A stretch of 64,000 nt of DNA from a virus. Its lineage: Duplodnaviria; Caudoviricetes. The DNA lies in the IMG/VR virus record IMGVR_UViG_3300027847_001698, one strand, 5' to 3'. A model generated the notes under the pieces. It was not told the origin of the DNA. It did no database searches and saw only the letters and a program-made list of their open reading frames with translations. The translations under genes and the position numbers were made by a program. The first letter of the stretch is position 1; every line of letters begins with the position of its first letter. Below, piece by piece: positions 19,341 through 38,602 of the stretch.

Positions 19341-19937
19341 CTAGTCCTTGATTAAGGACAAAAACTCAGTTCTAGTCTGAGGTTGATTTTTAAATTTTCC
19401 TTTCATAGCTGAGGTTATCATTGAAGCATTTTGCTTCTTGACACCTCTACATATCATACAGAAATGCTGTGCTTCCATTATTACTCCGACACCATCTGGC
19501 TTTAAATACATGTCCATGGTCTCGGCAATGTCAACAGTCATTTTTTCCTGAATTTGTAATCTACTGGCAAATATATCAACAAGTCTTGCCATCTTAGATA
19601 ATCCTAATACTTTTCCGTTTGGAAGATAACCTATATGACATACCCCACTAAACGGTAGCATATGATGCTCACATATTGAAGTAAAATCAATATTTTTACA
19701 CATTACTATCTCGTCAGCGAGTTCTCCCTCACCTAAACCTTCTTGGAAGAATGTAGATAACACTGTAGAAATATCATGATTGTATCCAGCATACAATTCT
19801 ATCCATGATTTTACAACCCTGAATGGGGTATCAATCAATCCTTCTCTTGTTGGATTATCTCCAATAGATGCAAGAATTGATTTAACATTATCCATTGCTC
19901 CTGGAAACTTTGCTTCTACTTCTTCTTTAGTTATCAT
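19341..19937 (-). CDS. folE: GTP cyclohydrolase I
   Basis: REGLIDTPFRV, SICEHHMLPF, GLSKMARLV, RLQIQE, HFCMICRGV. Confidence 0.97.
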   Translation of the reverse strand: MITKEEVEAKFPGAMDNVKSILASIGDNPTREGLIDTPFRVVKSWIELYAGYNHDISTVLSTFFQEGLGEGELADEIVMCKNIDFTSICEHHMLPFSGVCHIGYLPNGKVLGLSKMARLVDIFASRLQIQEKMTVDIAETMDMYLKPDGVGVIMEAQHFCMICRGVKKQNASMITSAMKGKFKNQPQTRTEFLSLIKD

Positions 19938-22900
19938 TATAATTCCTCTTTTATTTCGTAGTCTAATCCCATAGTCTTTAATTCTGATTGAAATAATCTG
20001 ATTGACTGACTTACGTCATCATCATTTTCATCCAATTTCATATCATCATTTTGGATCATTTTTGAGATAGTAGCATTTCTCTTTTTGATTGAATCCGATT
20101 TAGTGGTAAGAAACTCCCACAAATTAGATTCGGCTCCATGACCTGCTACTGCCCAAACTTCCATTTCTCCTAATCTTTGTCCACCCTTTCTATTCTTGCC
20201 ATCAAGCGGTTGACATGTTTTAGATGAATATGGTCCAACTCCTCTATGGGCTATTTTATCCTTTGATATATGATTCATCTTTATAAAATATTGATAACCT
20301 ACTGCAATCTCATTGATTATATTCTGTTCAAAATAAGATGGATCCTTATTGTGTTCATCATCCCCATAAGGATCATAACACGGATACTCCATTCTGGTTC
20401 CAGTATAATCCATTGCCTCTGATAATTTATCAACTGGGGTTGATTCATACGGAGGCTGAATAACATAGAACGAATCAATATGATTGACAATATACTCTAC
20501 TGATACTGCTTCTAAAAAGAGTTTCATTTGATGAGTATACTCTTTATTTTTAGTACTATCAATAATCTTTATATAGTTTAAAATGAATTCTTTAATTTCT
20601 TCTTCTTCTTCTTTATCTTCGAACTTCTTAACAATAATGTTTCTCATATCTTGAACGGACATTGCCATATGCAACTCAAAGAGCTGCCCAATATTCATTC
20701 TTGAAATCACACCTAATGGGTTCAGTACAACATCTGCACTTTGACCATTTTCTAATCTAGGCATTTCATGTTCTGGAACTATCTTTGAAATGATTCCCTT
20801 GTTTCCATGCCTGTTCCCAATTTTATCACCAACTTCAATTGGTCGTTTATACATTGCTGTTATTTCGAATCTAATCCCATCAATAGATCCACCTTTTACT
20901 TTATACGTCCCTCTCTTCTTCTCAGTGTTATCAATTGCAATTGATTCCAAGAAGTGACCTAACTGATCTTGACTAAGATACGTAGATAGGTTATCAATCA
21001 TACTAGTCCGATCTTTATTCTTTTGTGCTATCAATGATGTCACGAATGTATCATATTGTGGAAACTCTTTATTCCACTTGTTAGCAAAAAGTTTTACATC
21101 AGTGATAACACAATCTTCAGTTACCACCTTTTCAAACGGTTCATCAAATATCATATCCAGACTATCATTAATACCAGTCAATGTCTTTATCTTGGCATAT
21201 ATGTCACCTTTAGTCAAAACATCTCCAATATTAGGAATTCCCTTATATGCAGTTTCATCATCTCCAAGATTCAGTAAAAGCTTATTTGGGGGAACTTCAA
21301 ATGTCAAGTCTAAATAATGAACTGATGTCAATTCATTGTCTTTAACCAATCTATCAGATATTACTATAGCATCTTCAAAGTTATAACCATGCCATATAGT
21401 AACAGCAGTCAATAAGTTTTTACCAACAGTAAGTCTACCTTGTTTCAAATAATTACTTTCTGCAATCATTTGATCCTTCTTGAATGTATGACCTATATCA
21501 AAATAAACATGATAAAAATCATATATAGACAAGAATAACTTTTTGTAACCAATATTAAACGCTTGACATTTCTTGTTATCAAATTGAACAACTATGACAC
21601 TATCATCCTTGAATACCACAGTACCATCTCTAGAAGCGACAAAGCAGAATGAGGTATACTTGGTATACATTCCCTCCACTCCAGATTGTACTAGTGGTAC
21701 ATCGAAGTTTTCTAACATAATAGCATGACGTTGTTGGGAACTAGACATTTGTAATCTAGTTGGATCATCATGTTCTAAAAACGGAACATGTGATATGGCA
21801 ATTGAATTTCTGCAATCACCTTCCCCTTTATTAAACGTCAAATCATTTCCAAGCTGTATTGTTGGTGTCAAATATTGAACTGTTCCACAATTTTCTCTAT
21901 CCCCTGTATCCGCAGGACATACATGACTCTTCATTGAAGGATGTATATCTCTTAGGTATGGAGGAACATTTCCCTTTTCAAATCCACCTGGCCCAGACAA
22001 TGATAACCTAGTTAACATTGCTAACTCTGATAATGGGTTGATTGAAAAGTCAAACTGTACAATTGCAGACTGATTTATATTGTTTAGTATAACTTTAGAA
22101 TTATTCCGAAATCTATTCTTCTTAGATTGTCTCAATGAAACAATCATCTGGTAGAAGTCTCTAGCCAGATGAGAGTAAACTAATTGTTCAGAAAATCTAA
22201 TTCGTTTATTTGAATAGTCTAAATCGTCATTATCCCAATCTCCTAATGAGCTAATCAATTCCTCTAATACATTTGGTGTGGTGAGGAATTCCTTAGTGAA
22301 AATATCTACCTCAGATATTAGAAGAACGTTATTAACAATATCAACGTCCTCTTTTCTATTAAAGTACTGAGATAACAATCTCTTCTTGCTTGAAGGAGAG
22401 TCAATCAAATCTTTAATATCTTGTGCCAAATCGTAATCAATAGTAACATTGGTAGATAACGAATCTTCCTTTGTTATACCAAATCTATCCTTAATCTTAT
22501 CTTCTCCCAAATAAGCATAGACAAGATAACAAAACGGAACTTCCTTACCAAACAGAGTAACATAGTAAAAGTAAGGTCGTCTAAGACGTTGTTTCTTAGT
22601 TAAAGTAAAATTATGAATATTGGTCCTGAGTTTAATTATATCATTTCTTCGAATCAAAGGTCTATCAAACAATTGAAAGATCGAAACTTTTTTGTTTCCA
22701 CCAATAAAGAAATGATTATCTACAAGCCAAGGAATTTCATATTCTAAATCTAACGTCTTATTATCACCATGAACCATCGAAATTTTCAATATTCGAGATA
22801 TTGTTTGTTTTAATTCAGAGCGGTCAACTTTTTCTGGTCGTTCAACAGAAATAGAACTAACTCGAATACCATACTGTTCGCCACATTGCAGCATCTTAGT

Positions 22901-22996
22901 TATATTAGAAACAAGACTGTTTTCCCAGTCTTTCTGTCTAAGATCAAATATATTATGTTTACTTAATATATAATCAGGTACACATAGATTTAACAT
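19937..22996 (-). CDS. rpoB: Multisubunit RNA polymerase beta-like subunit, set 1 (putative non-virion)
   Basis: RDIHPS...CPADT, LEHDDPTRLQMSSSQQRHA, GYNFEDAIVIS, GDKIGNRHGNKGII, SRMNIGQ, GGQRLGEME. Confidence 0.93.
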   Translation of the reverse strand: MLNLCVPDYILSKHNIFDLRQKDWENSLVSNITKMLQCGEQYGIRVSSISVERPEKVDRSELKQTISRILKISMVHGDNKTLDLEYEIPWLVDNHFFIGGNKKVSIFQLFDRPLIRRNDIIKLRTNIHNFTLTKKQRLRRPYFYYVTLFGKEVPFCYLVYAYLGEDKIKDRFGITKEDSLSTNVTIDYDLAQDIKDLIDSPSSKKRLLSQYFNRKEDVDIVNNVLLISEVDIFTKEFLTTPNVLEELISSLGDWDNDDLDYSNKRIRFSEQLVYSHLARDFYQMIVSLRQSKKNRFRNNSKVILNNINQSAIVQFDFSINPLSELAMLTRLSLSGPGGFEKGNVPPYLRDIHPSMKSHVCPADTGDRENCGTVQYLTPTIQLGNDLTFNKGEGDCRNSIAISHVPFLEHDDPTRLQMSSSQQRHAIMLENFDVPLVQSGVEGMYTKYTSFCFVASRDGTVVFKDDSVIVVQFDNKKCQAFNIGYKKLFLSIYDFYHVYFDIGHTFKKDQMIAESNYLKQGRLTVGKNLLTAVTIWHGYNFEDAIVISDRLVKDNELTSVHYLDLTFEVPPNKLLLNLGDDETAYKGIPNIGDVLTKGDIYAKIKTLTGINDSLDMIFDEPFEKVVTEDCVITDVKLFANKWNKEFPQYDTFVTSLIAQKNKDRTSMIDNLSTYLSQDQLGHFLESIAIDNTEKKRGTYKVKGGSIDGIRFEITAMYKRPIEVGDKIGNRHGNKGIISKIVPEHEMPRLENGQSADVVLNPLGVISRMNIGQLFELHMAMSVQDMRNIIVKKFEDKEEEEEIKEFILNYIKIIDSTKNKEYTHQMKLFLEAVSVEYIVNHIDSFYVIQPPYESTPVDKLSEAMDYTGTRMEYPCYDPYGDDEHNKDPSYFEQNIINEIAVGYQYFIKMNHISKDKIAHRGVGPYSSKTCQPLDGKNRKGGQRLGEMEVWAVAGHGAESNLWEFLTTKSDSIKKRNATISKMIQNDDMKLDENDDDVSQSIRLFQSELKTMGLDYEIKEEL

Positions 22997-25749
22997 TCTA
23001 TTTCCGCCACCGGTTTATCATTTGTCATAATTTTTTCGAGAATTCCTGATGATTCCCCATCTCCAGAAATTATTCCATCTATCAAATATGATTTTGGTTT
23101 GCTGAATGCAAGTGCAAGAAGCCATGATTCCCTAGATGGGATCGACTCAATACTAACCATTTCATAATCTGTTATATCTCTTTCCGGATTAACTCTCCAT
23201 CTCATTTTCCCATTACGCATCATTTGAGAGACTATGCACTCATAATGAACCAATAGGACTAATTTATAAGCCGAGTATACACCGAATAGCTTCATAAGAG
23301 AATCGTAATAAGAATTCTTTTCACTTGCATGAAATACTTTCTTTACACGACTCAAATCATTTACAATATCTTGTTGTTGAGAAGCGTCTCCAGTTGATTT
23401 CTTTGCTGCACCTGATGTATGAAACGTTCTTAACACTAACTGGGTTGATACTTCTCCCATTGCTTGTGCTGCAATAATGCCAATGTATTTAGAATGTAAA
23501 TACTTATGACTTGACCCATAACATGTTTGACACACGCCATGGTCTTCACAAAACAACGGAGATCGAACATGTACTAATTGTCCCAGAAATGAATGATAGT
23601 TACCATATGTAATTTCAACTAATCCATCATCTGTTACACTATACCGTCCTATTAGAGACTTTGCTAATTTCAATCCTCCATTTTCCTTCTCGGGAATATT
23701 AATTGCAAGAGTATCTACTGTACCACAATCTTCGTTTTTACCCAATTCAAGATTAACAGAACAATACACCAATTTTCTAGTTAAGTATCCAGAATCTCCA
23801 GTGTTAAGTGCTGTATCTAATAATCCTTTTCTTGAACCATAGCAAGAGATGAAAAAATCATCTCTAGTCAATCCACCAATTAGATTACTCTTAATTGGTG
23901 TTTCAATGATCTTCCCTGCAAAGTTAGAAACAAATCCTCTACACAGCACAATCTGGTTCGCTTGATCCCATGATCCTCTTGAACCCGAATCGATGAATAG
24001 GGAATAAGGGAATGCTTCTCGTACCTTCTCTTGTATTTCTGTTGATTGAATCTTAGAGAATTTATCACCCCACTCTAATTCAGGATCATCCATTATATCG
24101 GACACTATTGTATCAGCGCCTTTTAATAACATATTCTTTAATGACATAGTACAACCAAATCGAGATGTAGACTTAAATCCTAACACCTTTATATCGTCTA
24201 AAATATCACACACTTGATCAGAGTTTCTAGTTCTAGCCAAATCATCCAACAAAACTCTCAACAGTTTTTTATCAATTACTTCATTGATGAATGGATAATC
24301 TGGCAATATGCTATTGAATTCAACTCTTCCTTCGTATGTATCAATGCCATCTGCTATCACCTTTTTAGATTCGTCTTCTTTGGTTAAGAGATATAATCCT
24401 AAAATTATATCCTGATTAACACCAAGAATAAGACTTCCAGTAGTTGGACAGATCAGATTGTTCTTTATAGATAACTTCTCTTTGCATTCTGCCGTGGTTT
24501 CTTCTGTCAACGGTCTATATATTGCCATTTGATCTCCATCAAAATCTGCATTATATGGCTCGCATACCATCGGATGTATTTTAATTACATTGTCAGTATT
24601 GATTAATACATCAAATGACAATATTCCCATTCTATGTAACGTTGGTTGTCTATTAAGAATAACGGATGTACCCTCACAACAGTTCTTTACAACATCTAAT
24701 AATGAGAGATCTTTAATTTTTATACATGAATCAATATGATCTATTGCTGAATCATATCGTTTGAATGTTCTCTTCTCTAGTAATTTGTTTGCTAGTTCCA
24801 ATTTATACAATTCAAGTGCAAGCACATAAGGTATAGAGCATTGATTTAATCTCAAACTAGGTTCAGGTGCAATAACTGCTCTCCCTGAAAAATCAACTCT
24901 CTTGCCCAAAATCGATCCTCTGATCAATCCTGTTTTCTTACTCAACTTCTTGAATATAAAATCATAAAGAGACGTTACATGTCGTTGAAGATTTCTAAAT
25001 GTGGCTTCCCGTATTCCTGCAACCGCAGCAGTTTCTAAATGGTCGTCCTTCATTAAAATCGAGAAATTCAAGATAGTTGTTAAATATCTATTCATCTCAT
25101 CTCGCATTTGAGCATCCTTTGTCTTAGACACTGGTCTAAACTCAGGTGGTAAGATAATTATATTAGACATGTAAAATTTAGACAAGTGAGTCTCAACTAT
25201 TTTCCACATCGCATCTTTATCTTTCTTTCTATCACACTCAAACTTTACGAGATCGTAAACTCCATCAACACCAATAAACACAGGTTTATCATCTGGTAAT
25301 GTTGGAAGTTCCTCTTCATCTGATTCCCTCTCTTTGAATATTCGTTCAACTAATACATAACTAGCCAACTCTTCATCAAAATAATATGCATAAATCTTTT
25401 CATTAAAGAACAGATTCTCTATCATGTCCCTCATTTTTGTCTTTCCTGCCCTAATAATTAATTGATACATAATAGGGTTTAGTATTGGAAAGGGTAACAC
25501 TATTTTTGCAAATCTTTTTCGTCTCTCATTAGAATATGTAATGTCTACATCACATGTTCCACATTTATCTCCAATTCTAGATCTTCCCCAATACGTTTTA
25601 CAACCACACCATGTAGTTTTGACTGGTCCGAATATCTTTTCACTGAAAAGACCTTCTGGGTGAAATCCGTGCTTTGAATAAATTTTAGAACTTGATACTT
25701 GGGGTATACCCTCGCAGAATTCATCTACGTTAAAGAAATCTAATTTCAC
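22990..25749 (-). CDS. rpoC: Multisubunit RNA polymerase beta'-like subunit, set 1
   Basis: N-terminal Zn ribbon CGC...CGTC, LGKRVDFSGRAVI, NRQPTLH, catalytic YNADFDGDQMA, TGDSGYLTRKL, TQLVLRTFHTSG; GTG start. Confidence 0.95.
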   Translation of the reverse strand: MKLDFFNVDEFCEGIPQVSSSKIYSKHGFHPEGLFSEKIFGPVKTTWCGCKTYWGRSRIGDKCGTCDVDITYSNERRKRFAKIVLPFPILNPIMYQLIIRAGKTKMRDMIENLFFNEKIYAYYFDEELASYVLVERIFKERESDEEELPTLPDDKPVFIGVDGVYDLVKFECDRKKDKDAMWKIVETHLSKFYMSNIIILPPEFRPVSKTKDAQMRDEMNRYLTTILNFSILMKDDHLETAAVAGIREATFRNLQRHVTSLYDFIFKKLSKKTGLIRGSILGKRVDFSGRAVIAPEPSLRLNQCSIPYVLALELYKLELANKLLEKRTFKRYDSAIDHIDSCIKIKDLSLLDVVKNCCEGTSVILNRQPTLHRMGILSFDVLINTDNVIKIHPMVCEPYNADFDGDQMAIYRPLTEETTAECKEKLSIKNNLICPTTGSLILGVNQDIILGLYLLTKEDESKKVIADGIDTYEGRVEFNSILPDYPFINEVIDKKLLRVLLDDLARTRNSDQVCDILDDIKVLGFKSTSRFGCTMSLKNMLLKGADTIVSDIMDDPELEWGDKFSKIQSTEIQEKVREAFPYSLFIDSGSRGSWDQANQIVLCRGFVSNFAGKIIETPIKSNLIGGLTRDDFFISCYGSRKGLLDTALNTGDSGYLTRKLVYCSVNLELGKNEDCGTVDTLAINIPEKENGGLKLAKSLIGRYSVTDDGLVEITYGNYHSFLGQLVHVRSPLFCEDHGVCQTCYGSSHKYLHSKYIGIIAAQAMGEVSTQLVLRTFHTSGAAKKSTGDASQQQDIVNDLSRVKKVFHASEKNSYYDSLMKLFGVYSAYKLVLLVHYECIVSQMMRNGKMRWRVNPERDITDYEMVSIESIPSRESWLLALAFSKPKSYLIDGIISGDGESSGILEKIMTNDKPVAEIEC

Positions 25750-25763
25750 GTCTAGTTCCTAAT

Positions 25764-26327
25764 TTATGAAGTTGATACACTAAATGATATTGAATTTATC
25801 TTATCTGCAATGATACCGTTAATGCTTTCTTTTAAATCTGAAGTTCTATTAGCTAGTGTGGCGTTTATAGCTGGAGCTAATGTATTATCGAATTCTTGTT
25901 TAATAAGTCTAATTAAATTTTCATCACAATATCGTTCAATTACATCAGTTATTATTGAATGATCTCTTTTAATAACTGCTTCAACTCCTTCCATGATAAC
26001 AGTAGATAGAATATCATTAGTTAACATGTTAGTAACTGAAACGTCTGCACATAGCATATCAAGATCACCATACTTCTCAACACTTTTAAACTTCCACCCT
26101 TTAGTCTGTCTATCATAACTCATTCGGCTATTGTACTTCGCAAACTGTTTCTTAAACTCCTCAATTCCAGTAATACCATAATCCTGTTCTAAGTCTGTAG
26201 ATATAATATGTAACTCTTTTAAGGTAAAACTATCCTGATTATCAAATTCTTCCGTGGCAGTTATAACATCGTTTATTAATGTTTCTATGTTATTAACTAC
26301 AGGAACTGAATTAATTTCATCTGACAT
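25764..26327 (-). CDS. Hypothetical acidic helical protein
   Basis: 187-aa ORF with upstream AAAGGAGAA. Confidence 0.7.
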   Translation of the reverse strand: MSDEINSVPVVNNIETLINDVITATEEFDNQDSFTLKELHIISTDLEQDYGITGIEEFKKQFAKYNSRMSYDRQTKGWKFKSVEKYGDLDMLCADVSVTNMLTNDILSTVIMEGVEAVIKRDHSIITDVIERYCDENLIRLIKQEFDNTLAPAINATLANRTSDLKESINGIIADKINSISFSVSTS

Positions 26328-27029
26328 TTATTTCTCCTTTAGTATATGTTTAAGAGTTTCAAAATGCTTATTATGCTCATATGGATTATCCATATTTACA
26401 TATCCTAACATCATCTTAGCTATATTTAAAGAATCCGGAGTTAAACACATTCGCTTAATAGCGGAATCCATGCAAAATTTATTATTTAGTGGACTTAAAT
26501 TGGGATGTACACCTGTACAATATAAGCCCCCTCTTAATGTTTTGTCAATAGAAATCTTAAACTCTGTGATTCCATAACCTAACTGCCTTAATTCATCTGG
26601 GTTTGTCCTGATTATTTTTCCATTGTACAGTATCGAATTAATCGGAATATAATCAACCCATATTATCCATTTATTATTAACAAGATATCCTTGTTTTAAA
26701 ATTTCATTTATGGCTTGACATCCTTCAGTGGTAGCGAAATAGGTTAATCTCTTTACATCTGCCATTATCCTAGTCAAACTTGAAGCCAATGAAACGTGTG
26801 CCTTAACTTTACGTGATACTATAAATTTTCTAATGTCCCTTAATACATCAGATAAATTGATTTGAATATCGCCTATTATAATCAACCCTGTCCTATCTTT
26901 TGATAATCTATATCCCGATTTTTGTTTATTTATTAAACATACTGAATACATATTATCTTCATCATAATGTTCCCAATTATTAATATCTGATAACGTTAAT
27001 AATTTTGATACTTCATCTAATATGGTCAC
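26328..27029 (-). CDS. Prokaryotic E2/UBC-like domain protein (module 2)
   Basis: HPNLSPLNNKFC (HPN...C E2 signature) followed by MMLGYVNMDNPY; aligns by eye with the E2 domain of 33916..36039. Confidence 0.6.
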   Translation of the reverse strand: MTILDEVSKLLTLSDINNWEHYDEDNMYSVCLINKQKSGYRLSKDRTGLIIIGDIQINLSDVLRDIRKFIVSRKVKAHVSLASSLTRIMADVKRLTYFATTEGCQAINEILKQGYLVNNKWIIWVDYIPINSILYNGKIIRTNPDELRQLGYGITEFKISIDKTLRGGLYCTGVHPNLSPLNNKFCMDSAIKRMCLTPDSLNIAKMMLGYVNMDNPYEHNKHFETLKHILKEK

Positions 27030-27304
27030 GCCGTTCCTGTTAATGGATTAACCGTGACCTCTAAATTGTTATCAAAATCTTTTCTGAACGTCAAAGCAAA
27101 CTTCTTTTGTGGGAATAATGTACATTCTGTTTTGACTTCAGCTTGTACTGTTTTAATAAAATCTAATATTGAAAATCTGGACCCGTCTACCTGTTTAGGT
27201 CTTTTAGAGGAATCAGATCTAATTGATATTTTCATATGTGGATTTTCATATATAAATCCACTTAATGCGTTTTCATTTTCTACTTGGTTAATTAATCGAT
27301 TCAT
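27026..27304 (-). CDS. Small protein between E1-like and E2-like genes; candidate beta-grasp/Ubl
   Basis: 92 aa; strand-strand-helix-strand pattern and C-terminal tail LEVTVNPLTGTA. The fold is inferred only. Confidence 0.3.
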   Translation of the reverse strand: MNRLINQVENENALSGFIYENPHMKISIRSDSSKRPKQVDGSRFSILDFIKTVQAEVKTECTLFPQKKFALTFRKDFDNNLEVTVNPLTGTA

Positions 27305-27851
27305 TTCTTTCTATCCTTTGTCCATCTTGTACATGTGCTCTAAGATTATAAACGTAGTAAGTATTAGGAAATAATAACTCTTTGTCTATTACATTACATA
27401 CTATACTTGTTGCCAAATCTACATATAAGAAATCTTTAGCTACAGAGTATTCGGAATAATCATCTGTAACTTTAGGGTCATCTCTGGTATCTATTATTAA
27501 AGTAGAACCATCTAGTGATATTCTTGCATGACTATTAATTGGTCTAGCCTTATCATCTCTACAATCTAAAATAATTCCTGTCTTATCTATATCCGTCTTA
27601 ATTTCTTTATGATGACAAACCAATTTTCCCAAATCTAATATTCCTAAACTTTCTATTAGGTCGGCTATTGCTACAACCTTTTCCACTCCTGCCATTGATG
27701 TATAAAATGGAGGTTCTACTACCCCATATGATATTACATCTTTGTCATAAATATGATAATCACGAAAAACTTTATTTCTCCAAAGTTTGAAGAATATATT
27801 TGAGCCAACTGTTCCACATCCAACTATCCGAACAATTTTAGTTTCATACAT
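27288..27851 (-). CDS. Short, degenerate ThiF/E1-like protein (module 2)
   Basis: IVGCGTVGS nucleotide-binding loop, YDKDVI, GVEKVVA, ILDCRDD; lacks the NLxR motif. Confidence 0.7.
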   Translation of the reverse strand: MYETKIVRIVGCGTVGSNIFFKLWRNKVFRDYHIYDKDVISYGVVEPPFYTSMAGVEKVVAIADLIESLGILDLGKLVCHHKEIKTDIDKTGIILDCRDDKARPINSHARISLDGSTLIIDTRDDPKVTDDYSEYSVAKDFLYVDLATSIVCNVIDKELLFPNTYYVYNLRAHVQDGQRIERNESIN

Positions 27852-28181
27852 TTAAATCTTAATTAAAAATCTACATACTTCTATGTCTTCAGTTTTATAT
27901 TCATATGGTTTTTCATCAACCACAGTTATATCTAATTCCGTAAATGCAGCTCTGGTATTTGATAGAATCTCTCTATTCACTTCAATAATACCTACATTGG
28001 TCGTTATTGATTCAAAGAATCCTCTATACTGGGGAGTAGTTGGTACACCAAATCCCAACACTGATATTTTCTTTTCTTTTAATCGTTTTACTAATGTATG
28101 AACCTTTCTAGTATCATTTCTAATTCTGTCATCTTCCTTAGTACTAAAAGTTGACTTTTTATCCTTTTTATCCGTTCTCAT
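27852..28181 (-). CDS. Hypothetical protein
   Basis: 109-aa ORF with a basic N-terminus, tightly coupled to its neighbours. Confidence 0.65.
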   Translation of the reverse strand: MRTDKKDKKSTFSTKEDDRIRNDTRKVHTLVKRLKEKKISVLGFGVPTTPQYRGFFESITTNVGIIEVNREILSNTRAAFTELDITVVDEKPYEYKTEDIEVCRFLIKI

Positions 28182-28190
28182 TAATATTCC

Positions 28191-28670
28191 CTATAAGTAA
28201 TTCTGGAATTCCCCAGCTCTAAAATCAAATGTACTAATAGCGTTGAATGGGTAACCATTCGTCATAGAATTCATTTTTTTAATACCCTCAATATCATTAT
28301 CAACGTAATAAATCTTATCTACATCAAAATTAATTTCATCATGTGTACCATCTATAATACTTTTTATTGTATCCACTTTATATTTTATAACTTCACTATA
28401 TGTAGTATTGGAATAAAAAATTCTTGGAAGAGTGAATATTTTTTCAGGTTCCATGCCCCTCAACAAACAAACCAAGTAAACAAATGGCTTATCTATCCTT
28501 GGGCGACCTGTTAACACAGACCATCTTACTCCAAAATCCTCATTGGGGTTTATATATGTTCCTGATGTTATACATTGTTTAGTGTTATGTATCAATCCTT
28601 TCCAGTTCGTATCACCACAAAGTGTTCCATCAAAATCAAAAAGGTATAATATATTTCTAGATTTTAACAT
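28191..28670 (-). CDS. HAD-superfamily phosphatase-like protein
   Basis: LFDFDGTL (motif I), VLTGRP (motif II), YYVDND (motif IV); RBS GAGGAGG. Confidence 0.8.
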   Translation of the reverse strand: MLKSRNILYLFDFDGTLCGDTNWKGLIHNTKQCITSGTYINPNEDFGVRWSVLTGRPRIDKPFVYLVCLLRGMEPEKIFTLPRIFYSNTTYSEVIKYKVDTIKSIIDGTHDEINFDVDKIYYVDNDIEGIKKMNSMTNGYPFNAISTFDFRAGEFQNYL

Positions 28671-28717
28671 TAATAACCTCCTCTCATATATAGATATATA
28701 TAGAAATAGCTTTCCAT

Positions 28718-31234
28718 TTAAATACTCAGAACCACATCACTCTCAGCGTCTTGTGTATAAGAGTGTGTAATCAATGTAATGTTTTTATTGTTTGCTAACG
28801 CTTTTAAATTCTGACAAAAAGTAGAAGAATTAGCAGAATCAAGACTGTCTAATACTTCATCCAGTAAAATAATATTAAATGATTTATCATATAGATTTTC
28901 AACTAACTTTCGTAATACCATCATACAACAAACATCAATCTGACGTTTTTCCCCACCAGATAATAACTTATGACTATCTGCCCCTGTTTCTGTATTCAAT
29001 ACATTCACAGAAAATCTCTCTCTGATATCTCCACCTTTTGTTTCAGATAGGGTATCAAACGAGACTATAAATTTACCTGGTGCAATCTTTGTTAGTTCCT
29101 CACGAATTGTCTTATTCATAAAAGGAATAGATCCATCAATTAACATCGACGGTATTCCTTTATCAGAAAATGCAATTTTCCAAAACTTATAAACTTCCAG
29201 TTTTTTATTTCCCTTTTTTATAGAAGCGGCATAATTATTTTTTTCAACTGTCAATTCATTTAATTCACTCTTTACAGAATCTAATTTAGATTCATCTATA
29301 TCAGTATCTTCTTCCAACGTATAAAGCTCATTTCGATTAAAGTCTAAAGATGCTATAAGACGAACAATAGAAGCAGTCCTTCCTTCTATTTCAAGTTTAG
29401 ATTCTAACTGTTCAACTTTCTCTACTTGTATATTAAGCAAATCTGATTCAAGTGTATATTTGGATGATAGAAACTCATTTAATATTTCTTTAGACTCTGT
29501 TTTAGATTTAATATCTATTTCATCTTCTATCTTTATTTTAAATACTTCAAAATCAGATTTAAGTTTTTTCTTTTCAGATTCTATTTGAATAGACAACTTA
29601 GACTTGTTCTCTTGGCATTCATCCATTAGCATATCATATTTTTCATCAATAGCTTTATCGGTTTCTTTTCTGGCAACTATAATAATATCTAACTGTTGTG
29701 TAATATCTAATATACTTGTAGAATTATCTGTTTTCTTTTTATCTCCTGTAGCTAAGAGAGTACTAAGATCTTTCTCTACCTTCTCATTTTCATCTATGAG
29801 TTTTTGTTTATAATCAGCATATAATGTTTTGATGTTTAAGAATTCAGCCTTTATAGCTTCGATTCGATCAGTCTTTTCATTAATTAATTTCTCAATCAAT
29901 TCAGATTGTTCTTGTAAATGTTGTTTATGGCTATTGTCCTCTACCTTTTGATTACACATTAAACATGTATCAAAATCAATTTGGACTTGATGCCTTTTTT
30001 CATTTACTTCACCATTAAGAGCTTTAGCCTCTTGTTTAAGATCCTCTGACTTCTTTATAAGAGAATCAATTTGATCTTGAATGTCATATACATTAACTGA
30101 CTTATTCTTTCGTGCTTTTTCAATATCATATTGTTGACTTAAAAGAACCTTCCCTCTCTCCAATTCAATAAGATCAGATTTCAATTTAGATTCGTTATCA
30201 AACGATCCTTTAATAGAAGTTTGAGTCTCTTCCGCCTTTTGACTTGTCAAGATAGTTAATGTGTCAGCCAATGTTGTGAGCTTTTGTCCCAATGTTTCAC
30301 GGGTATTCGAGAAACTAGTGTCTAACTCATTTTTCATTTTAGACAAGATATCATCTTTTTCTCTTACTAGCTTACTGATAAGATTCTCTTGTTTCTTCTC
30401 TTTAGCTTCTTCCAATCCAAATAATTCATCTGACATTTTAACTATATCTACATCTATATGGACTAGTTTTTTATTTATAGAATCCAGATCTTTCTTTGTT
30501 TTATCTTCATCAAGATCGTTAAGATCCTTTTCCATTAACGGTATTCTAATAGTCAAATCTTTAATTCTATTAGCAAGATCATCTTTCTGTGCCTGAATAA
30601 ATGCAGATGTTTCAGTCAACAGAGTTTCTTTTTCTTCAAGTCTAACTTCTATTTTGTCAAACTCTCTACTCTGATTATCAACTTCTATAGTGAGAGTTTT
30701 AGAATCTTCGTCTATATATTCTTTATATCTTTTCCATTCCTCAAGTTGTAGGATAGATGAAAAAATTTGCTTTTGTTGAGAATCATTCAACGACGTAAAG
30801 AAATCCTTAACTTGCTGAGAAAAATAAATACTATTTAAAAAAACTTGTTTAGGAACTAAAATCTGCTCTATTCTCTTATATGTATCAGTTGTAGTTTTCC
30901 CTGAAATGTCAGTTCCATTCAGATACAAATACAACTTATTAGAATGTTTAGAATGTTTATAATAACGCTTTATTAGATATTCATCAGTGTCCACTAGAAA
31001 ATCTACTTCTACTTCGAGATTTTTCCCTTCCTTTTTATTTACTAAATCTGGAAGTTCAATTCCTTCTGCTGTTTTCCCATATAAGGCAATCATTAAAGCC
31101 ATAAAATAAGAAGACTTTCCTTTACCATTTGGTCCAACAATAGATACTAATTTATTATTAGGGAATTCTAATTCTGTTTCAATGTGACATCTAAAATTTA
31201 CTAACTTTACTTTATTAAATTGGATATTTTTCAT
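28718..31234 (-). CDS. sbcC: SbcC/Rad50 (T4 gp46-like) ABC ATPase
   Basis: GPNGKGKSS, long coiled coil with CLMC zinc hook, LSGGEKRQI, LLDEVLDSLD, ITH. Confidence 0.95.
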   Translation of the reverse strand: MKNIQFNKVKLVNFRCHIETELEFPNNKLVSIVGPNGKGKSSYFMALMIALYGKTAEGIELPDLVNKKEGKNLEVEVDFLVDTDEYLIKRYYKHSKHSNKLYLYLNGTDISGKTTTDTYKRIEQILVPKQVFLNSIYFSQQVKDFFTSLNDSQQKQIFSSILQLEEWKRYKEYIDEDSKTLTIEVDNQSREFDKIEVRLEEKETLLTETSAFIQAQKDDLANRIKDLTIRIPLMEKDLNDLDEDKTKKDLDSINKKLVHIDVDIVKMSDELFGLEEAKEKKQENLISKLVREKDDILSKMKNELDTSFSNTRETLGQKLTTLADTLTILTSQKAEETQTSIKGSFDNESKLKSDLIELERGKVLLSQQYDIEKARKNKSVNVYDIQDQIDSLIKKSEDLKQEAKALNGEVNEKRHQVQIDFDTCLMCNQKVEDNSHKQHLQEQSELIEKLINEKTDRIEAIKAEFLNIKTLYADYKQKLIDENEKVEKDLSTLLATGDKKKTDNSTSILDITQQLDIIIVARKETDKAIDEKYDMLMDECQENKSKLSIQIESEKKKLKSDFEVFKIKIEDEIDIKSKTESKEILNEFLSSKYTLESDLLNIQVEKVEQLESKLEIEGRTASIVRLIASLDFNRNELYTLEEDTDIDESKLDSVKSELNELTVEKNNYAASIKKGNKKLEVYKFWKIAFSDKGIPSMLIDGSIPFMNKTIREELTKIAPGKFIVSFDTLSETKGGDIRERFSVNVLNTETGADSHKLLSGGEKRQIDVCCMMVLRKLVENLYDKSFNIILLDEVLDSLDSANSSTFCQNLKALANNKNITLITHSYTQDAESDVVLSI

Positions 31235-32294: not shown

Positions 32295-33161
32295 TTACAA
32301 CAGTGTTAGAATCTCAGTGTCATCGTCATCATCTGCACCGTGTTGTATTCCCGCAGAATTTACAGCCTCTTCTTGGCTAATGACATCATGATCCATCAAT
32401 AATACATAATCTTGCAAACAAGCACTTCCATCTTCCATTGATTCCATTGCTTGTTCTAATCTTTCTCTCAACATATCAGCGGGATCTACAATAGGAATGT
32501 TCATTCCTAGAAAATCTTCACGGTTTCCTACCATTCCTGTCTGATGCTTTACTTGGCCATGGGAATTATAGTTATAATGTCCAGTATGAACAACTGCTTT
32601 TTGTTGATAGACCTTTTTACTAACTTTCTCAAGATCAAGATCAAACTTTTTAGTATTTATAATATTAATATCCAACGGTAGTTGAATTCTACCAACTGGA
32701 CTATTAATATTAATTATACCTGAATGAATAATTCTATTCACAAACAATAGAGAAAATTCATGATTAACATTGATATACTCATCATCGGTGCCTGAGAATT
32801 TTGTACAACCAGAAGGATGTCTATGAATTACTCCATTGAACCCCGCTGGTGCTTCTTCTTTAAAATCTATAGTTGCAGCAGTTACTTCTTGTTCAGGAAG
32901 CATCCACTTATTTTCCAGCATTAATATGCCATCGACAACCTTACCCTTTAAATACAATGCAAATTCAACAGAAGAATCTGGAAGATCATATTGGATTTGT
33001 AACATGACTTCCTGTAAATCACTTGGAATTACGACATCTACACTGTTGATTATTTGTAGAGCAGGATTTTCATTTTTCCAAACTACTTCCCCCGAACTCT
33101 TTTTTATTTTCATGTCTGCTTTAGACGTATCTACTGATTCATCCTTTATGGTCGTTAGCAT
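32295..33161 (-). CDS. JAB/MPN (JAMM) metallo-isopeptidase
   Basis: Glu in VEFALY plus HRHPSGCTKFSGTD, an exact H-x-H-x7-S-x2-D match. Confidence 0.88.
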   Translation of the reverse strand: MLTTIKDESVDTSKADMKIKKSSGEVVWKNENPALQIINSVDVVIPSDLQEVMLQIQYDLPDSSVEFALYLKGKVVDGILMLENKWMLPEQEVTAATIDFKEEAPAGFNGVIHRHPSGCTKFSGTDDEYINVNHEFSLLFVNRIIHSGIININSPVGRIQLPLDINIINTKKFDLDLEKVSKKVYQQKAVVHTGHYNYNSHGQVKHQTGMVGNREDFLGMNIPIVDPADMLRERLEQAMESMEDGSACLQDYVLLMDHDVISQEEAVNSAGIQHGADDDDDTEILTLL

Positions 33162-33909
33162 TGTACACTTCCTCTGTTACCGGTTGTTGATCTACATTCT
33201 GGCCCAAATAAATTCCTTCTAATAATCGTCCTGTATCAAATGTTATAAGTTTATTAAATAAGTTATCTTTATCATTGCATGAAAAACTTCCATCGTCAAT
33301 TAATGAGTATTTTGGCATTAGAATGTGATTACATACCAAATTTGCAACTAATTGAGCAGAGCAAACAAAAGAAGGAACTATATCATAATTCCCCCGTGCA
33401 CTCGTACCCATTACAGTTGTATGTCTTGGATTTCCGTCTATTGTAACAGACAATCCATCATAACCTAATTTCCAAACCTTTGTATGTTCTGAAAACTGCT
33501 TTATATCTTTAAAGATATTATCTCTACAATCTATAACTACCTCTGGGTAACTCCCCTTCCCCTTAAGTACTTCCAATGAGTTTTCATCATACTTTTCATT
33601 ATATATAACTATATCAATATCAATTCTTCTTTCAAGGATAAGCTCTAATACTACATCTGTTTTATTTCTTCCAATATCACATATTCTAAATAACGTTCTA
33701 TTCAGATTAGTATTTTCAATTGTATCCGAATCGTACATAACTAGTTTCTTAATTTGGCCAGTTAACGCCAAATTAAGAGCAACCCATGAACCTATTCCGC
33801 CAAGTCCAATTACTAGTGCACAATTATATTCTCTAAGATTTAATGATCGTTGTCTGTCACGTACTTCTTCTCCCCGATCATTAACTATATTATAAATTGA
33901 TTGTGTCAT
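33139..33909 (-). CDS. ThiF/MoeB/E1-like adenylating enzyme (module 1)
   Basis: VIGLGGIGS, YDSDTIENTNLNRTLF, DIGRNKT, VIDCRDN. Confidence 0.92.
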   Translation of the reverse strand: MTQSIYNIVNDRGEEVRDRQRSLNLREYNCALVIGLGGIGSWVALNLALTGQIKKLVMYDSDTIENTNLNRTLFRICDIGRNKTDVVLELILERRIDIDIVIYNEKYDENSLEVLKGKGSYPEVVIDCRDNIFKDIKQFSEHTKVWKLGYDGLSVTIDGNPRHTTVMGTSARGNYDIVPSFVCSAQLVANLVCNHILMPKYSLIDDGSFSCNDKDNLFNKLITFDTGRLLEGIYLGQNVDQQPVTEEVYNANDHKG

Positions 33910-33915
33910 TATAAA

Positions 33916-36039
33916 TCACTCGTTTGTTGAGTTTGTTGAATATCTAATGTCCGGTGAATTATCTATATATTGTATACAATCTGACGCGGATACTATTTTA
34001 TCCTTTATATTCTTATATGCCTCCTTTTCCCAATCTTTAGGTATTATGTCAGATTCTTTAGTCTTCTTTTTGGGTGGAGTTAATAACAATCCAAACTTTT
34101 TCCTTACTGTTTCTGAGAGAAATCCCCATGCCCTACAAATGACATCTCCACCTAATAATGAAAGATTCATGATCACCTTTTCAAAAGTTTCAGGATCATT
34201 AAAAAGCATTGGTCGGGTATATGAATTTTTACAATAGAAATATAAAGGTTTATCACTATCGTGGGAACCATCAGGCAAAAATACACCTATAACAGTTACA
34301 CCATTAGGATGTACCCAAGTTAATCTTCTATCAGAGTTTAAGATGAAAGATGATGAAACAGTTTCGGCATTACGCATTTGATCTAAAATTCGTATATATA
34401 CAGATAATTCTTCAACATCAATTTTATCATCTATAGCCTCTTTAATTACGTCTACATCTATTAATTTGCCGTCCTTAATAATTTCAACTTCATCTTTTCC
34501 ATTTATTGTTCTTGAGGGAGACAGCCCTCTATTATCATCCTTTTCATCATCTATTATTAAATCTCCTGCACCAATAGCAATCATTTTAGATTTAGATGAT
34601 TTTTTAGATACTTTAAGAAATTCTGATTCTGATTTGCATTTAACCTTTAATATTTTGTGATAATACGATTCATTATAAGCACTATCATAATTTAGAATCT
34701 GTAATAACGATTCCATTTTTATTAAATGCTCTTCAATTTTTTCCGTGGGTCCAGAAAATTTAATATTTCCTAAATCACCTAAGCATACTGAACCATCAGA
34801 AGATACATTTGGATGGGTGGATTCTGTAAAAGAAAATCCATCTCCATTAATATATAACCATTTTACTCTAAACATTCTTAACTCTTTAGGAATTATTTTA
34901 CAAACACCATCTCTAAAAAATCGATCAGGTAATATATCTATCTTCTTTTTCCATAACAAATTAGATCTATAATTACTACTAAATCGTTCATGGGTAGCTA
35001 CTTCCCATCCATATTTAGTTAACAGACCAGATATAGTCAATCCTCTATGAAACGATTGTTGTGAGCTGTCTCGATTTTCATTTGAAGCTCGTTCTAATAC
35101 TTTGGTTAATAAACTTGCATATATTTCAGATTTCCCTGATTGATAGATTGTGTCCCACTCTGCGGTAGCCATAGTGCGTTTTAATTCTTTCAAAATCCCT
35201 TCGGAATCTAAAGTAAAGTCTGCATCTGATGGGGAATATTTACATTCCTCTAATCTCTTTATAAGTTTACATATAGATTCATCTTTTCCGTCAGCTTCCC
35301 AATGTTTAATATCTATATCATGAAGTCTATTATGAACGAATGTAATTCGATCAAGAATGTTTTCTAGTAATACATTAACCTTTTCTACATCTCTTGATCG
35401 TCCACTTCTCATCAAATATCTTAATACTGGCCATTTTATATAAGTGGTTCCATCCACACACATAAACCCAACTAAAACTGAATTAGTTCCAACAAAGAAG
35501 ACCTCTGATACTAAACTATCTTTGACATCACAAATATCTTGTAATAATCTTGAATTTACAACTGAAGTAAGATTTGCAAATCCTGGATTTCTAAATCTCA
35601 TATTTGGACATATATTGACACATAATTTTCTAAATGTTACATCGGAATCATTTAAAGGAGTTCCTAAATATTTAGAAAATGACGTAGCCATACTTGCATG
35701 TGAAACTCTAGGATTACATGTAATATATTTTAAAAGATCACTAAGTCCAAAGTTTGTTATAACTAACTTGTGATTCATCTTTAATGACTTACCATATTCA
35801 TCCAAGGTTAGCTGTTCGTCATAAACTAGACTATATGAATTCAACCTATGGGTGTCACCTGGATCGTCAGATATGACATCTCTTACTACTACATTATTTA
35901 CCAAATCTAAATATTTATCATTTACCAAAAGTTTAGAAAGACATTTATTTAGCTTTTCTATAAATCTTCGTTCAAATGTATAATCTCTATGGTTATCTGG
36001 GGTAAACAAACGAGAAAGGGTTTCTTGTGTTCTGCTCAT
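33916..36039 (-). CDS. Large multidomain protein containing a prokaryotic E2/UBC-like domain (module 1)
   Basis: STHPNVSSDGSVCLGDL (Cys codon 34783-34785) followed by LLQILNYDSAY; preceded by a coiled-coil-like segment. Confidence 0.75.
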   Translation of the reverse strand: MSRTQETLSRLFTPDNHRDYTFERRFIEKLNKCLSKLLVNDKYLDLVNNVVVRDVISDDPGDTHRLNSYSLVYDEQLTLDEYGKSLKMNHKLVITNFGLSDLLKYITCNPRVSHASMATSFSKYLGTPLNDSDVTFRKLCVNICPNMRFRNPGFANLTSVVNSRLLQDICDVKDSLVSEVFFVGTNSVLVGFMCVDGTTYIKWPVLRYLMRSGRSRDVEKVNVLLENILDRITFVHNRLHDIDIKHWEADGKDESICKLIKRLEECKYSPSDADFTLDSEGILKELKRTMATAEWDTIYQSGKSEIYASLLTKVLERASNENRDSSQQSFHRGLTISGLLTKYGWEVATHERFSSNYRSNLLWKKKIDILPDRFFRDGVCKIIPKELRMFRVKWLYINGDGFSFTESTHPNVSSDGSVCLGDLGNIKFSGPTEKIEEHLIKMESLLQILNYDSAYNESYYHKILKVKCKSESEFLKVSKKSSKSKMIAIGAGDLIIDDEKDDNRGLSPSRTINGKDEVEIIKDGKLIDVDVIKEAIDDKIDVEELSVYIRILDQMRNAETVSSSFILNSDRRLTWVHPNGVTVIGVFLPDGSHDSDKPLYFYCKNSYTRPMLFNDPETFEKVIMNLSLLGGDVICRAWGFLSETVRKKFGLLLTPPKKKTKESDIIPKDWEKEAYKNIKDKIVSASDCIQYIDNSPDIRYSTNSTNE

Positions 36040-36046
36040 ATTAAAT

Positions 36047-36080
36047 AAAAAAGGTGGCTAGAGATTTATCCCTAACCACC
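36047..36080 (-). terminator. Intrinsic terminator between the Ubl-fusion gene and the E2 gene
   Basis: Minus strand GGTGGTTAGGGA-TAAA-TCTCTAGCCACC-TTTTTTATTT: 12-bp stem (two G-U pairs), 4-nt loop, U tract. Confidence 0.85.
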
Positions 36081-36101
36081 CTCCTCTATTTATATAATTG
36101 C

Positions 36102-36710
36102 TTACGCAGCTTTATTTACTTTGCCGACTTTCAACGAAAGAATACGACCTTCACCCAGAACGATATCAGTCTTACCGGAAATGTCGGTATTAGTTTTGAC
36201 ATCAGAAACAGCAAACGAGGCCATTCCTTGTTCAGTGGCATAAGTACTAATCGCGGAGAGGGTGTCATTTGCGTCCTCAACCTTGAACTTTGGTTCGCCG
36301 TTGATTACCAAAAGATACGCACCGTCAGCGAGAGACACCTTATAACCTTTCGGAAATGCCTTGTTTGGCGGGCAGTGAACATGAACACGTCCACTCTTTT
36401 TCTTTGCTGTAAACCCAGACAATGTATCAGCAGTCAATGAAGCAGGAGAACCAACCTTGACCATGGGCTTCTTAGATGCTTTGATAGTTGTCACTCCGCT
36501 GGTTCCACTTCCTGCAGAATACGTCACAAATCGACCACCATTATAAACAGAAAGCGTTCCATTTTCTACTAATGTGGTCAGTTCTTCCTTCAGCGATGCT
36601 GATGCCTTTGATGTAAAAAGTACATCCTTGGATATTCTGGTTGCGGTTGAGTTTTCGTTTTTCTTGACATACAACACGACTTTATTACTTACACTTTTTG
36701 TTAGTGACAT
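36102..36710 (-). CDS. Winged-helix + basic linker + C-terminal ubiquitin-like (beta-grasp) domain fusion, ending NKAA
   Basis: Residues ~5-60 fit a wHTH pattern. The last ~72 residues (AYLLVING.PKFKVED.helix.SFAV...DIVLGEG.RILSLKVGKV-NKAA) fit beta-grasp topology with a free small-residue tail. The gene directly precedes E2-E1-JAB. Confidence 0.55.
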   Translation of the reverse strand: MSLTKSVSNKVVLYVKKNENSTATRISKDVLFTSKASASLKEELTTLVENGTLSVYNGGRFVTYSAGSGTSGVTTIKASKKPMVKVGSPASLTADTLSGFTAKKKSGRVHVHCPPNKAFPKGYKVSLADGAYLLVINGEPKFKVEDANDTLSAISTYATEQGMASFAVSDVKTNTDISGKTDIVLGEGRILSLKVGKVNKAA

Positions 36711-38193: not shown

Positions 38194-38602
38194 ACAACTT
38201 TACATTGATTAATTCTAATCCTGAAGTTGGCGGTAAATTGTCGTTGACTTGTTCAAAGCACCACCTTGATAATTCTTCTGCTGTTGGGATAAATGGAACT
38301 TTTATAAGATTCCATGTGTCCTTAAATGGTTCAAACATTTCAGCTATCTCTTTGTCATTCTCGTAATAAATAAATCCATGATCTAATACATCATGTACAT
38401 ATGTTGTCATTACATCTTTCAAATCCCCAAAATCAATAACCATTCCTTGTTCAGATGAGCCTGATTCGCTATTTAGATATCCTGAAACTGTACATTCTAG
38501 TCTATATCTATGACCATGGGGATTTCTACATTTACTTTTATGATTAGGGACTCTGTGACCTGCATCAAATTCTATAATTTTAGTTATTCTAATCATCTTC
38601 AC
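38156..38602 (-). CDS. queD: 6-carboxy-5,6,7,8-tetrahydropterin synthase QueD
   Basis: FDAGHRV...CRNPHGHRY, VIDFGDLK, LDHGF, PTAEEL, FETPNSWA. Confidence 0.95.
   Translation of the reverse strand: MKMIRITKIIEFDAGHRVPNHKSKCRNPHGHRYRLECTVSGYLNSESGSSEQGMVIDFGDLKDVMTTYVHDVLDHGFIYYENDKEIAEMFEPFKDTWNLIKVPFIPTAEELSRWCFEQVNDNLPPTSGLELINVKLFETPNSWAQYGM

Follow-up and report, generated by a model that had tools for sequence, protein, structure and literature searches.

What do three small genes, whose products resemble the parts of a ubiquitin conjugation cascade, do directly in front of the RNA polymerase genes of a phage? The question is raised by positions 25764-28181 of a 64,000-nucleotide (nt) stretch, here called the window, which is a section of the 193.5-kb IMG/VR virus record IMGVR_UViG_3300027847_001698 (Duplodnaviria; Caudoviricetes; G+C ~32%). 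The source is a marine jumbo phage of an uncultured marine/sediment jumbo-phage clade. The minus strand carries almost every gene of the window, and the studied stretch lies directly upstream, in the sense of transcription, of unsplit RNA polymerase beta'-like and beta-like genes. A sequence-only reading had placed a second E1/E2 module here. The open reading frames (ORFs) that it named are present on the minus strand, and a second set of E1-like, ubiquitin-like (Ubl) and E2-like genes does stand directly upstream of beta'. We call this set module 2, consisting of E1' (187 amino acids, aa), Ubl' (92 aa) and E2' (233 aa), and the set at 32295-36710 module 1. Judged from its sequences, module 2 is a real, conserved variant of a ubiquitin-like conjugation system, and we lean, with some caution, towards the reading that it forms a compact, self-contained conjugation cascade (27851 to 26328). 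Its parts are the following.

27288..27851, minus strand: E1', a minimal ThiF/E1-like adenylation domain of 187 aa, with GCGTVG, D36, K58 and DCRD
27026..27304, minus strand: Ubl' candidate of 92 aa, predicted as a helix followed by beta-beta-alpha-beta-beta and a flexible tail LTGTA (27029-27043)
26328-27029, minus strand: 233-aa protein, made of the E2' domain and an N-terminal extra domain
26328..26744, minus strand: E2' domain with predicted UBC fold, residues ~95-233 of the 233-aa protein, with HPN at 26499-26507 and the catalytic-type Cys186 at 26472-26474
26745..27029, minus strand: N-terminal extra domain, residues 1-95 of the 233-aa protein

Relatives of the phage were reached by synteny of beta', which gave 80 viral contigs (beta' identity 40-56%) whose ORFs were searched, and counts refer to the 74 loci with at least 1.5 kb of sequence upstream of beta'. 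E1' and E2' are both found within 2.5 kb upstream of beta' in 66 of the 74 loci, while six further loci carry E1' followed by a protein that the E2' search did not recognise. Locus L003 has neither gene, and L077, which is cut near the contig end, has a truncated E1' plus its E2'. The short ThiF-like gene and the 92-aa ORF are conserved together, being adjacent in the three nearest relatives (L001, L002 and L012) and fused in the rest. The gene order of distant relatives is contiguous: large E2, JAB (Prok-JAB), E1, a Ubl of Rho_N plus ThiS-like type, E1'-Ubl', E2', a small protein and beta'. In the window subclade, SbcCD and two small genes separate modules 1 and 2.

Among GenBank phages, blastn with window positions 25000-29000 gave no match and the best beta' is only ~31% identical, so no cultured relative was found; tblastn with a long E1' detected no E1' homologue in the same set. 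The window sequence occurs, identical, in seawater metagenomes from many studies. Three metatranscriptome libraries yielded short, error-free contigs that cover the module-2 genes in part and patchily, one of them bridging the junction between E1' and the 92-aa ORF; DNA carry-over is possible, and these contigs are therefore given little weight. A G>A variant at window position 27287, just beyond the E1' stop codon and synonymous in the 92-aa ORF (AAC to AAT, Asn6), was seen in one RNA and one DNA seawater run.

E1' is ThiF-like, as had been proposed. It contains GCGTVG at residues 11-16, D36, K58 and DCRD at residues 96-99. Using phmmer, we found 175-190-aa orthologues in the three closest loci (E-value 1e-18 to 1e-25) and, at 1e-8 and weaker, proteins of ~285-305 aa encoded directly upstream of beta' in most other loci. 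These long (~290-aa) relatives exceed the Pfam ThiF threshold (42-53 bits vs 28.1). A profile of the E1' family (A2) matches Escherichia coli MoeB best (4.7e-15), followed by ThiF (1.5e-11) and then MccB, Cap2, Uba5 and Uba4. G11, G13, G16, D36, K58 and D96 are invariant in 66 family sequences, and in the alignment the invariant residues fall on the equivalents of MoeB D62/K86/D130. Such invariance of nucleotide-site residues would be unusual for a dead enzyme.

The E2 assignment combines several lines. In relatives, the long E1' gene is followed by a gene for a 110-160-aa protein, and to these proteins residues ~120-222 of the 233-aa protein can be aligned; most members of this E2' family have a size of ~110 residues. 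In 65 family sequences His175 and Cys186 are invariant and Pro176 and Asn177 are conserved in at least 90%, and H175-P-N is followed by C186 in the manner of E2s, whose catalytic Cys comes 7-8 residues after HPN. With the E2' sequence profile, the three best PDB matches are E2s aligned at the HPN...C catalytic site (E-value 0.13-1.5). The AlphaFold2 (AF2) model of the 233-aa protein, built on the family alignment, has a predicted local distance difference test score (pLDDT) of 84; its top 50 Foldseek matches in PDB are all E2 enzymes, but at E-values of 0.15-1.2. By VIA-align, residues 95-233 superpose on nearly whole E2 cores, with Z 6.0-6.7 and a root-mean-square deviation of 3.2-3.6 Å over 110-121 residues of ~147-residue E2s, and 141 chains reach at least Z 5. 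A Z of 6-7 is not strong alone, but combined with a list of matches made up of E2s only, an alignment that spans the domain and an invariant catalytic motif, it leads us to predict a UBC/E2 fold for the C-terminal half of the protein, which agrees with what the sequence-only reading had supposed. Pfam UQ_con matched only 3 of 65 E2' members (best E-value 0.0059) and did not match the 233-aa protein of the window, and word-based searches with this protein found only itself. Its N-terminal extra domain is present at full length only in the window and L002, is shorter in L001 and L012, and is absent from the distant 110-160-aa E2' proteins; an ESM Atlas search with this domain gave no usable lead.

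The origin of the tag can be read from the comparison of split and fused forms. The 92-aa ORF ends with LTGTA and a stop codon, as had been noted, and its final codon and the GTG with which the 233-aa gene starts overlap (GTGA). L001, L002 and L012 carry an ORF of 84-95 aa at the same position, and small-small-Ala closes each of the four split-form ORFs (GTA, SSA, DAA and GAA), compared with a terminal-Ala background of at most 8.7%. The 187-aa E1' matches only residues ~3-165 of the long E1' proteins, whose remaining ~120 residues end ...ELIPETGAA or ...ELLEETGAA, and the lengths are complementary (187 + 92 = 279 vs ~285 for the long E1'). A profile of the fused C-terminal domain (A3) was searched against 1.84 billion representative proteins. 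Only 103 clusters were matched, nearly always with the match reaching the last residue of the protein or stopping a few residues short of it. Most of the matched proteins (82 of 103) are 270-324 aa long, and 79 of these 82 have an N-terminal GxGxxG. Alanine is the terminal residue in 96 of the 103 clusters, with ETGAA (44) and ETGGA (13) among the tails, and in distant relatives the fused domain has a near-invariant end, ...[E/D]-T-G-[A/G]-A. Moreover, the hidden Markov model (HMM) of the fused domain finds the L001 orthologue of the 92-aa ORF at an E-value of 0.003 among 523 ORFs. Because of the synteny, the complementary lengths, the shared terminus and the weak colinear similarity, we conclude, on sequence grounds, that the 92-aa ORF is a fission product of an E1-modifier fusion, which is the layout in most relatives.

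The split is real, because the four genomes have four different junctions: a 17-nt overlap in the window, and a 4-nt overlap, a 32-nt overlap and a 13-nt gap in the others. We also considered a programmed frameshift that would link E1' to the 92-aa ORF, but set it aside, since the 17-nt overlap contains no slippery run and the junctions of the relatives differ, one being a gap.

The AF2 model of the 92-aa protein (pLDDT 85.6) contains strands at residues 25-30 and 37-40, a helix at 46-61 and strands at 69-75 and 81-87, and ends in a flexible five-residue tail (pLDDT 52). Its best Foldseek matches are ATG8/LC3 (probability ~0.9, E-value 0.016-0.1). An exhaustive structural search (VIA) gave Z of at most 4.8, with Ubl, UBX, SUMO, PB1 and protein G/L domains among other small folds. 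The ORF has no Pfam family match, and an ESM Atlas search with the protein gave no usable lead. The modelled fold is beta-grasp-like in appearance, short of being proven so.

Taken as a cascade, the three proteins might work as follows. The 187-aa E1' would bind ATP and adenylate the C-terminal Ala92 of the 92-aa beta-grasp-like tag, whose loose five-residue tail is like that of ubiquitin. The activated tag would then be passed to Cys186 of E2', beside His175-Pro-Asn, as a thioester, and from there to an amino group of a target. In the fused form of most relatives, the enzyme could activate its own tail or that of a dimer partner, by which it would then be attached, much as Cap2 attaches bacterial cGAS-like enzymes, and in the window subclade gene fission would have freed the tag. 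A more specific proposal, which we put forward tentatively and hold to be less probable than the cascade as such, is that the ancestral protein was a self-tagging E1, which activated its own Ala-ended Ubl tail, was attached via a minimal HPN-type E2 to a phage or host protein, and was later split. Its target may belong to the transcription machinery, beside whose genes the pair is fixed. The sequence-only reading had likewise pointed to RNA polymerase, a possible link that is suggested only by the conserved gene adjacency.

Several observations weigh against a working cascade of this kind. On the side of the tag, the fused-domain HMM does not score the 92-aa ORF of the window itself significantly among the 523 ORFs, and the sequence link between the two is weak, with pairwise E-values of 0.002-0.1; when the four split ORFs were compared with fused domains by hhalign, only the last 23 columns were aligned (Prob 10.7%). 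The beta-grasp matches of the 92-aa model stay under Z 5, many at Z 3.4-4.3, and the tag ends with Ala (G-T-A; G-A-A or G-G-A in the family), not with Gly-Gly. On the side of the enzyme, the 187-aa E1' reaches no Pfam or NCBIfam threshold (Pfam: no match at E<=0.1; NCBIfam ThiF: E-value 1.1e-4, 21.9 bits vs a cut-off of 159). It lacks the canonical NLxR Arg finger, for which the family consensus has KNLxNS and the window subclade not even Asn-Leu (SYGVVEPPF), and it also lacks the N-terminal helices of MoeB/ThiF, where the second Arg of MoeB sits. No loop cysteine that could carry an E1 thioester is conserved: the family keeps just C97 of DCRD, with a counterpart in MoeB (DCTD), and where 77% of its members have a further Cys, the window has Thr. 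This last absence is not fatal to an E1 role, because MoeB, ThiF and the Bub E1 lack such a cysteine as well. Finally, no target, E3 or dedicated protease was identified.

The missing Arg fingers lead to the main rival explanation, namely that E1' is a non-catalytic or half-catalytic partner of the module-1 E1, as in eukaryotic heterodimeric E1s, and that modules 1 and 2 are one system. The genes of module 1 are these.

36102-36710, minus strand: module-1 Ubl
33916-36039, minus strand: module-1 707-aa E2-domain protein, matched weakly by UQ_con over residues 405-465
33139-33909, minus strand: module-1 E1 (ThiF 5.3e-22), with NLNR and DCRD
32295-33161, minus strand: module-1 JAB-like protein

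In such a pair the beta-grasp of the tag would either recruit the E2, like a ubiquitin-fold domain, or deliver its tail into the active site of the partner. Canonical E1s bear a C-terminal E2-binding beta-grasp domain, found in Uba1, Uba2 and Uba3; the module-1 E1 retains NLNR, whereas E1' lacks both this and the second Arg; and the large E2, JAB, E1, Ubl, E1' and E2' genes are contiguous in most relatives. However, every nucleotide-binding residue of E1' is invariant, and a recruiting domain needs no exact ...TG(A/G)A end, yet Ala is the last residue in nearly all clusters with the fused domain. The modules also occur apart. On the 92-kb contig L067, E1'-Ubl' and E2' precede beta' and no further ThiF gene occurs; a Pfam scan of the five ORFs that lie upstream of E1' there detected no JAB. 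L003, in turn, carries module 1 and lacks module 2. These two cases are suggestive of separable modules, although the contigs (~90 kb) represent only ~27-29% of the genome. On these grounds we regard a pairing of the two E1s as rather unlikely, while keeping it as the chief competitor of a self-contained cascade. Upstream of E1' in L067 (L067:6247-7568), there are genes for a radical-SAM protein (5.7e-12) and a WYL_2 protein (3.2e-11).

The sequence-only reading had explained module 2 by an internal duplication that gave two conjugation routes, with different modifiers or targets, around one shared JAB; the rival weighed here is a recent event of this kind, in which module 1 was duplicated within this genome. 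One part of this stands, since the two E2 domains are specifically related in the window subclade. The by-eye alignment behind it is real: by hhalign, the E2' family and the module-1 E2 family align over 90 columns (residues 366-461 of the 707-aa protein) with Prob 94.6% and an E-value of 6.9e-8, and the W, P, HPN, C and N.D..Y positions all align. With only the four closest genomes on each side, the values are 83.7% and 8e-6. The E2' HMM has no direct match to the module-1 E2, and the link needed a profile-profile comparison or a second jackhmmer round. Both E1s do contain DCRD (ILDCRDD vs VIDCRDN), and 175 colinear residues of E1' align with the module-1 E1 at an E-value of 0.003.

The origin of the whole module by such an event does not hold up, because the pair in 66 of the 74 loci, at 40-56% beta' identity, is older than this genome. 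The E1 side gives it no help: the E1' profile gives 63-81 bits for the module-1 E1 of the window clade, 59 bits for MoeB and no more than 15-34 bits for the module-1 E1 that distant relatives have, so that E1' is barely nearer to the module-1 E1 than to MoeB, and paralogy of the two within the phage is not shown. Likewise, the module-1 E2 of distant relatives is of the Prok-E2_D type, has no HPN and is unrelated to E2' by hhalign (0.6%). Since these relatives have another type of E2, the E2' domain is as likely to have been passed to module 1 as to have come from it, and the module-1 E2 domain may have been replaced in one lineage. As for the shared JAB, module 2 has none of its own and the nearest lies 4 kb off, in module 1 past SbcCD; nothing ties it to module 2, and the 92-aa protein, whose end is already the conserved terminus, would not have to be trimmed. 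We therefore consider a recent duplication improbable.

Module 1 shows some further features. The distant module-1 E2 proteins (856-884 aa; L024:2704-5358 and ~50 homologues) have a weak Prok-E2_D match, with pL.NI...C.G replacing HPN...C. The distant module-1 Ubl joins a Rho_N (SAP-like) domain, a head of nucleic-acid-binding type, to a ThiS/TGS-like beta-grasp (L024:7889-8362, L006:7784-8272, L019:7742-8209 and L004:7560-7997) and ends ...LEFLKPAGKKG, or ...AGRKGF in L004. In the window, a strong terminator-like hairpin of 18 pairs plus a T-run (36047-36086, minus strand) lies between the genes of the module-1 Ubl and the 707-aa E2 protein, and the region of this Ubl has contig depths among the highest of a 17-kb stretch in all three RNA libraries.

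A third explanation would make E1' and the tag a sulfur-carrier or peptide-modifying pair of the MoeB-MoaD, ThiF-ThiS or MccB type, in which Ala is adenylated for thiocarboxylation or other chemistry and no tagging takes place. The best matches of the E1' profile are indeed MoeB, ThiF and MccB, an E1 catalytic cysteine is missing, and FolE and QueD of the 7-deazaguanine pathway are encoded in the same gene block. However, the HPN...Cys E2 is strictly co-conserved with E1', which makes a sulfur-carrier role unlikely; Pfam shows no rhodanese, cysteine desulfurase or sulfur-acceptor enzyme among the scanned neighbours; and the terminus is Ala, not Gly-Gly. We hold this explanation to be even less probable than a recent duplication. 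That the module-2 genes are decaying, functionless remnants is the least credible explanation of all, for although the Arg-finger region of E1' is degenerate in the window subclade and the 92-aa ORF has diverged quickly, sharing 13-26% identity with its orthologues, the frames are intact and the starts coupled, the catalytic-type residues are invariant, the small-small-Ala end is kept in all four split ORFs, and the identical sequence recurs in seawater runs of many different studies.

How, then, does a self-contained module 2 relate to the systems already described? Its components come from known superfamilies and its logic is that of the Bil, type-6 and CBASS (cyclic-oligonucleotide-based antiphage signalling) systems, but it departs from the defining layout of each. 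Bil (BilABCD; Chambers et al., PMC10557695) and the operon types 6a-6e, of which 6d is the PRTRC cassette (Iyer, Burroughs & Aravind 2006, PMC1779556), also combine a small E1 without rhodanese, a UBC-like E2 and a beta-grasp modifier, and module 1, with its E2, JAB, E1 and Ubl, has that very layout. In contrast, Bil has its Ubl, E2, JAB and E1 in one operon and module 2 lacks the JAB; E2' keeps the classical HPN His, which type-6d E2s do not have (PMC1779556); and with PRTRC_ThiF (NCBIfam; cut-off 144.75) a long E1' scores 13.3 bits, while the E1' of the window is not matched. Unlike in Bil and type 6, the modifier of module 2 ends with Ala and is mostly fused to the C-terminus of the E1, and the module is phage-encoded and fixed beside RNA polymerase genes, not placed in a bacterial defence island.

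Cap2 of type II CBASS is an E2-E1 fusion which conjugates the CD-NTase (cGAS/DncV-like nucleotidyltransferase) through its C-terminus (PMC10097602; PDB 7TO3). It belongs to the same E1 superfamily (E-value 4e-11 to 2e-10 with the E1' profile), and there, too, a whole enzyme is activated and attached via its own C-terminal residue, as the fused E1'-Ubl' would be. However, the Cap2 E1 is fused to the E2 and not to the substrate, E1' has no E1 cysteine, and there are no cyclase or effector genes here. In Bub (Ye et al., PMC11601596), BubAB is a Ubl-E2 fusion, the E1 has no catalytic cysteine, serine oxyesters are formed and cleavage exposes the end of the Ubl. The likeness lies in a modifier fused to a pathway enzyme and in the cysteine-less E1 (the E1' profile also picks up the BubCD E1 domain, weakly, at 2.7e-4), whereas the E2' cysteine is invariant and Ubl' stands at the extreme C-terminus, where no cleavage is needed.

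MoeB-MoaD and ThiF-ThiS are the nearest sequence relatives of the E1' core and, like it, pair a minimal E1 without thioester cysteine with a beta-grasp tail; their sulfur carriers end with Gly-Gly and they use no E2, while E1' is without the Arg73-type finger and the N-terminal helices. Ubl-ThiF fusions of the Campylobacter jejuni type (PMC1779556) also join a Ubl to an adenylating domain, but the Ubl is N-terminal and its C-terminus not free, whereas here it is C-terminal with a conserved free end. Only N-terminal Ubl-ThiF fusions were described by Iyer et al. (PMC1779556). The literature searched held no account of a C-terminal E1-Ubl fusion whose Ala terminus is conserved, of these phage cassettes, of an Ala-ended modifier, or of an E2 of ~110 residues as in most members. 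What is new here is the fusion/fission relation of E1' and the tag, together with its conserved terminus.

Experiments on prokaryotic ubiquitin-like conjugation have so far dealt only with anti-phage defence (CBASS Cap2, Bil and Bub), and here a phage clade carries two modules. The three proteins of the window total 512 residues and would be a small, easily expressed test system. It could show whether an E1 without Arg finger and cysteine still charges an E2, what a phage tags in infection, and whether the fixed place by the RNA polymerase genes reflects the target. If the ancestral E1 did tag itself, fission would have turned a single-turnover device into a reusable E1 and a free modifier, and nature would have preserved here one way in which a free ubiquitin-like tag comes into being.

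The genes around module 2 follow the minus-strand order SbcC (28718-31234), 28191-28670, 27852-28181, E1', Ubl', E2', 25764-26327 and beta', and the neighbours other than SbcC are described below.

28191-28670, minus strand: 159-aa protein with a DFDGT motif, between SbcC and the 109-aa orphan
27852..28181, minus strand: 109-aa orphan upstream of E1', with homologues only in L002 and L003
25764..26327, minus strand: 187-aa orphan between E2' and beta'
22990..25749, minus strand: RNA polymerase beta'-like, following the cluster after 14 nt; conserved anchor gene for E1' and E2'
19937-22996, minus strand: RNA polymerase beta-like

The genes of the stretch abut or overlap, by 17 nt between E1' and the 92-aa ORF and by 4 nt (GTGA) between the 92-aa ORF and the 233-aa gene, and no convincing terminator was found between the module-2 genes. 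We propose that these genes are translationally coupled, in the same orientation as the phage RNA polymerase genes. A sigma-70 promoter scan, which found fewer sites than in shuffled sequence, carries no information on this phage. Neither Pfam nor PHROGs yielded a match above noise level for any of the five small proteins encoded in the stretch. The 109-aa orphan is probably not a component of module 2, because L003, which has a homologue of it, has no module 2. The 187-aa orphan and its positional equivalents in L001, L002 and L012 have only a helical EF..V.P motif in common, and in 63 loci (L024:9749-9967, L006:9759-9983 and 61 others) a conserved helical protein of 72-83 aa is encoded directly before beta'.

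The 159-aa protein begins ...LYLFDFDGTLCGD and contains a DxDGT motif of HAD-phosphatase type. It has no Pfam or PHROG match, and its gene is kept between SbcC and the position of module 2 in L001, L002, L012 and L003. The block of polymerase and Ubl genes is flanked on one side by a GTP cyclohydrolase I (FolE) gene (5e-69; 19341-19937, minus strand) and on the other by a gene of the 6-pyruvoyl-tetrahydropterin synthase/QueD type (8e-34; 38156-38602, minus strand), both of which belong to the 7-deazaguanine precursor pathway and suggest that the DNA of this phage is modified.

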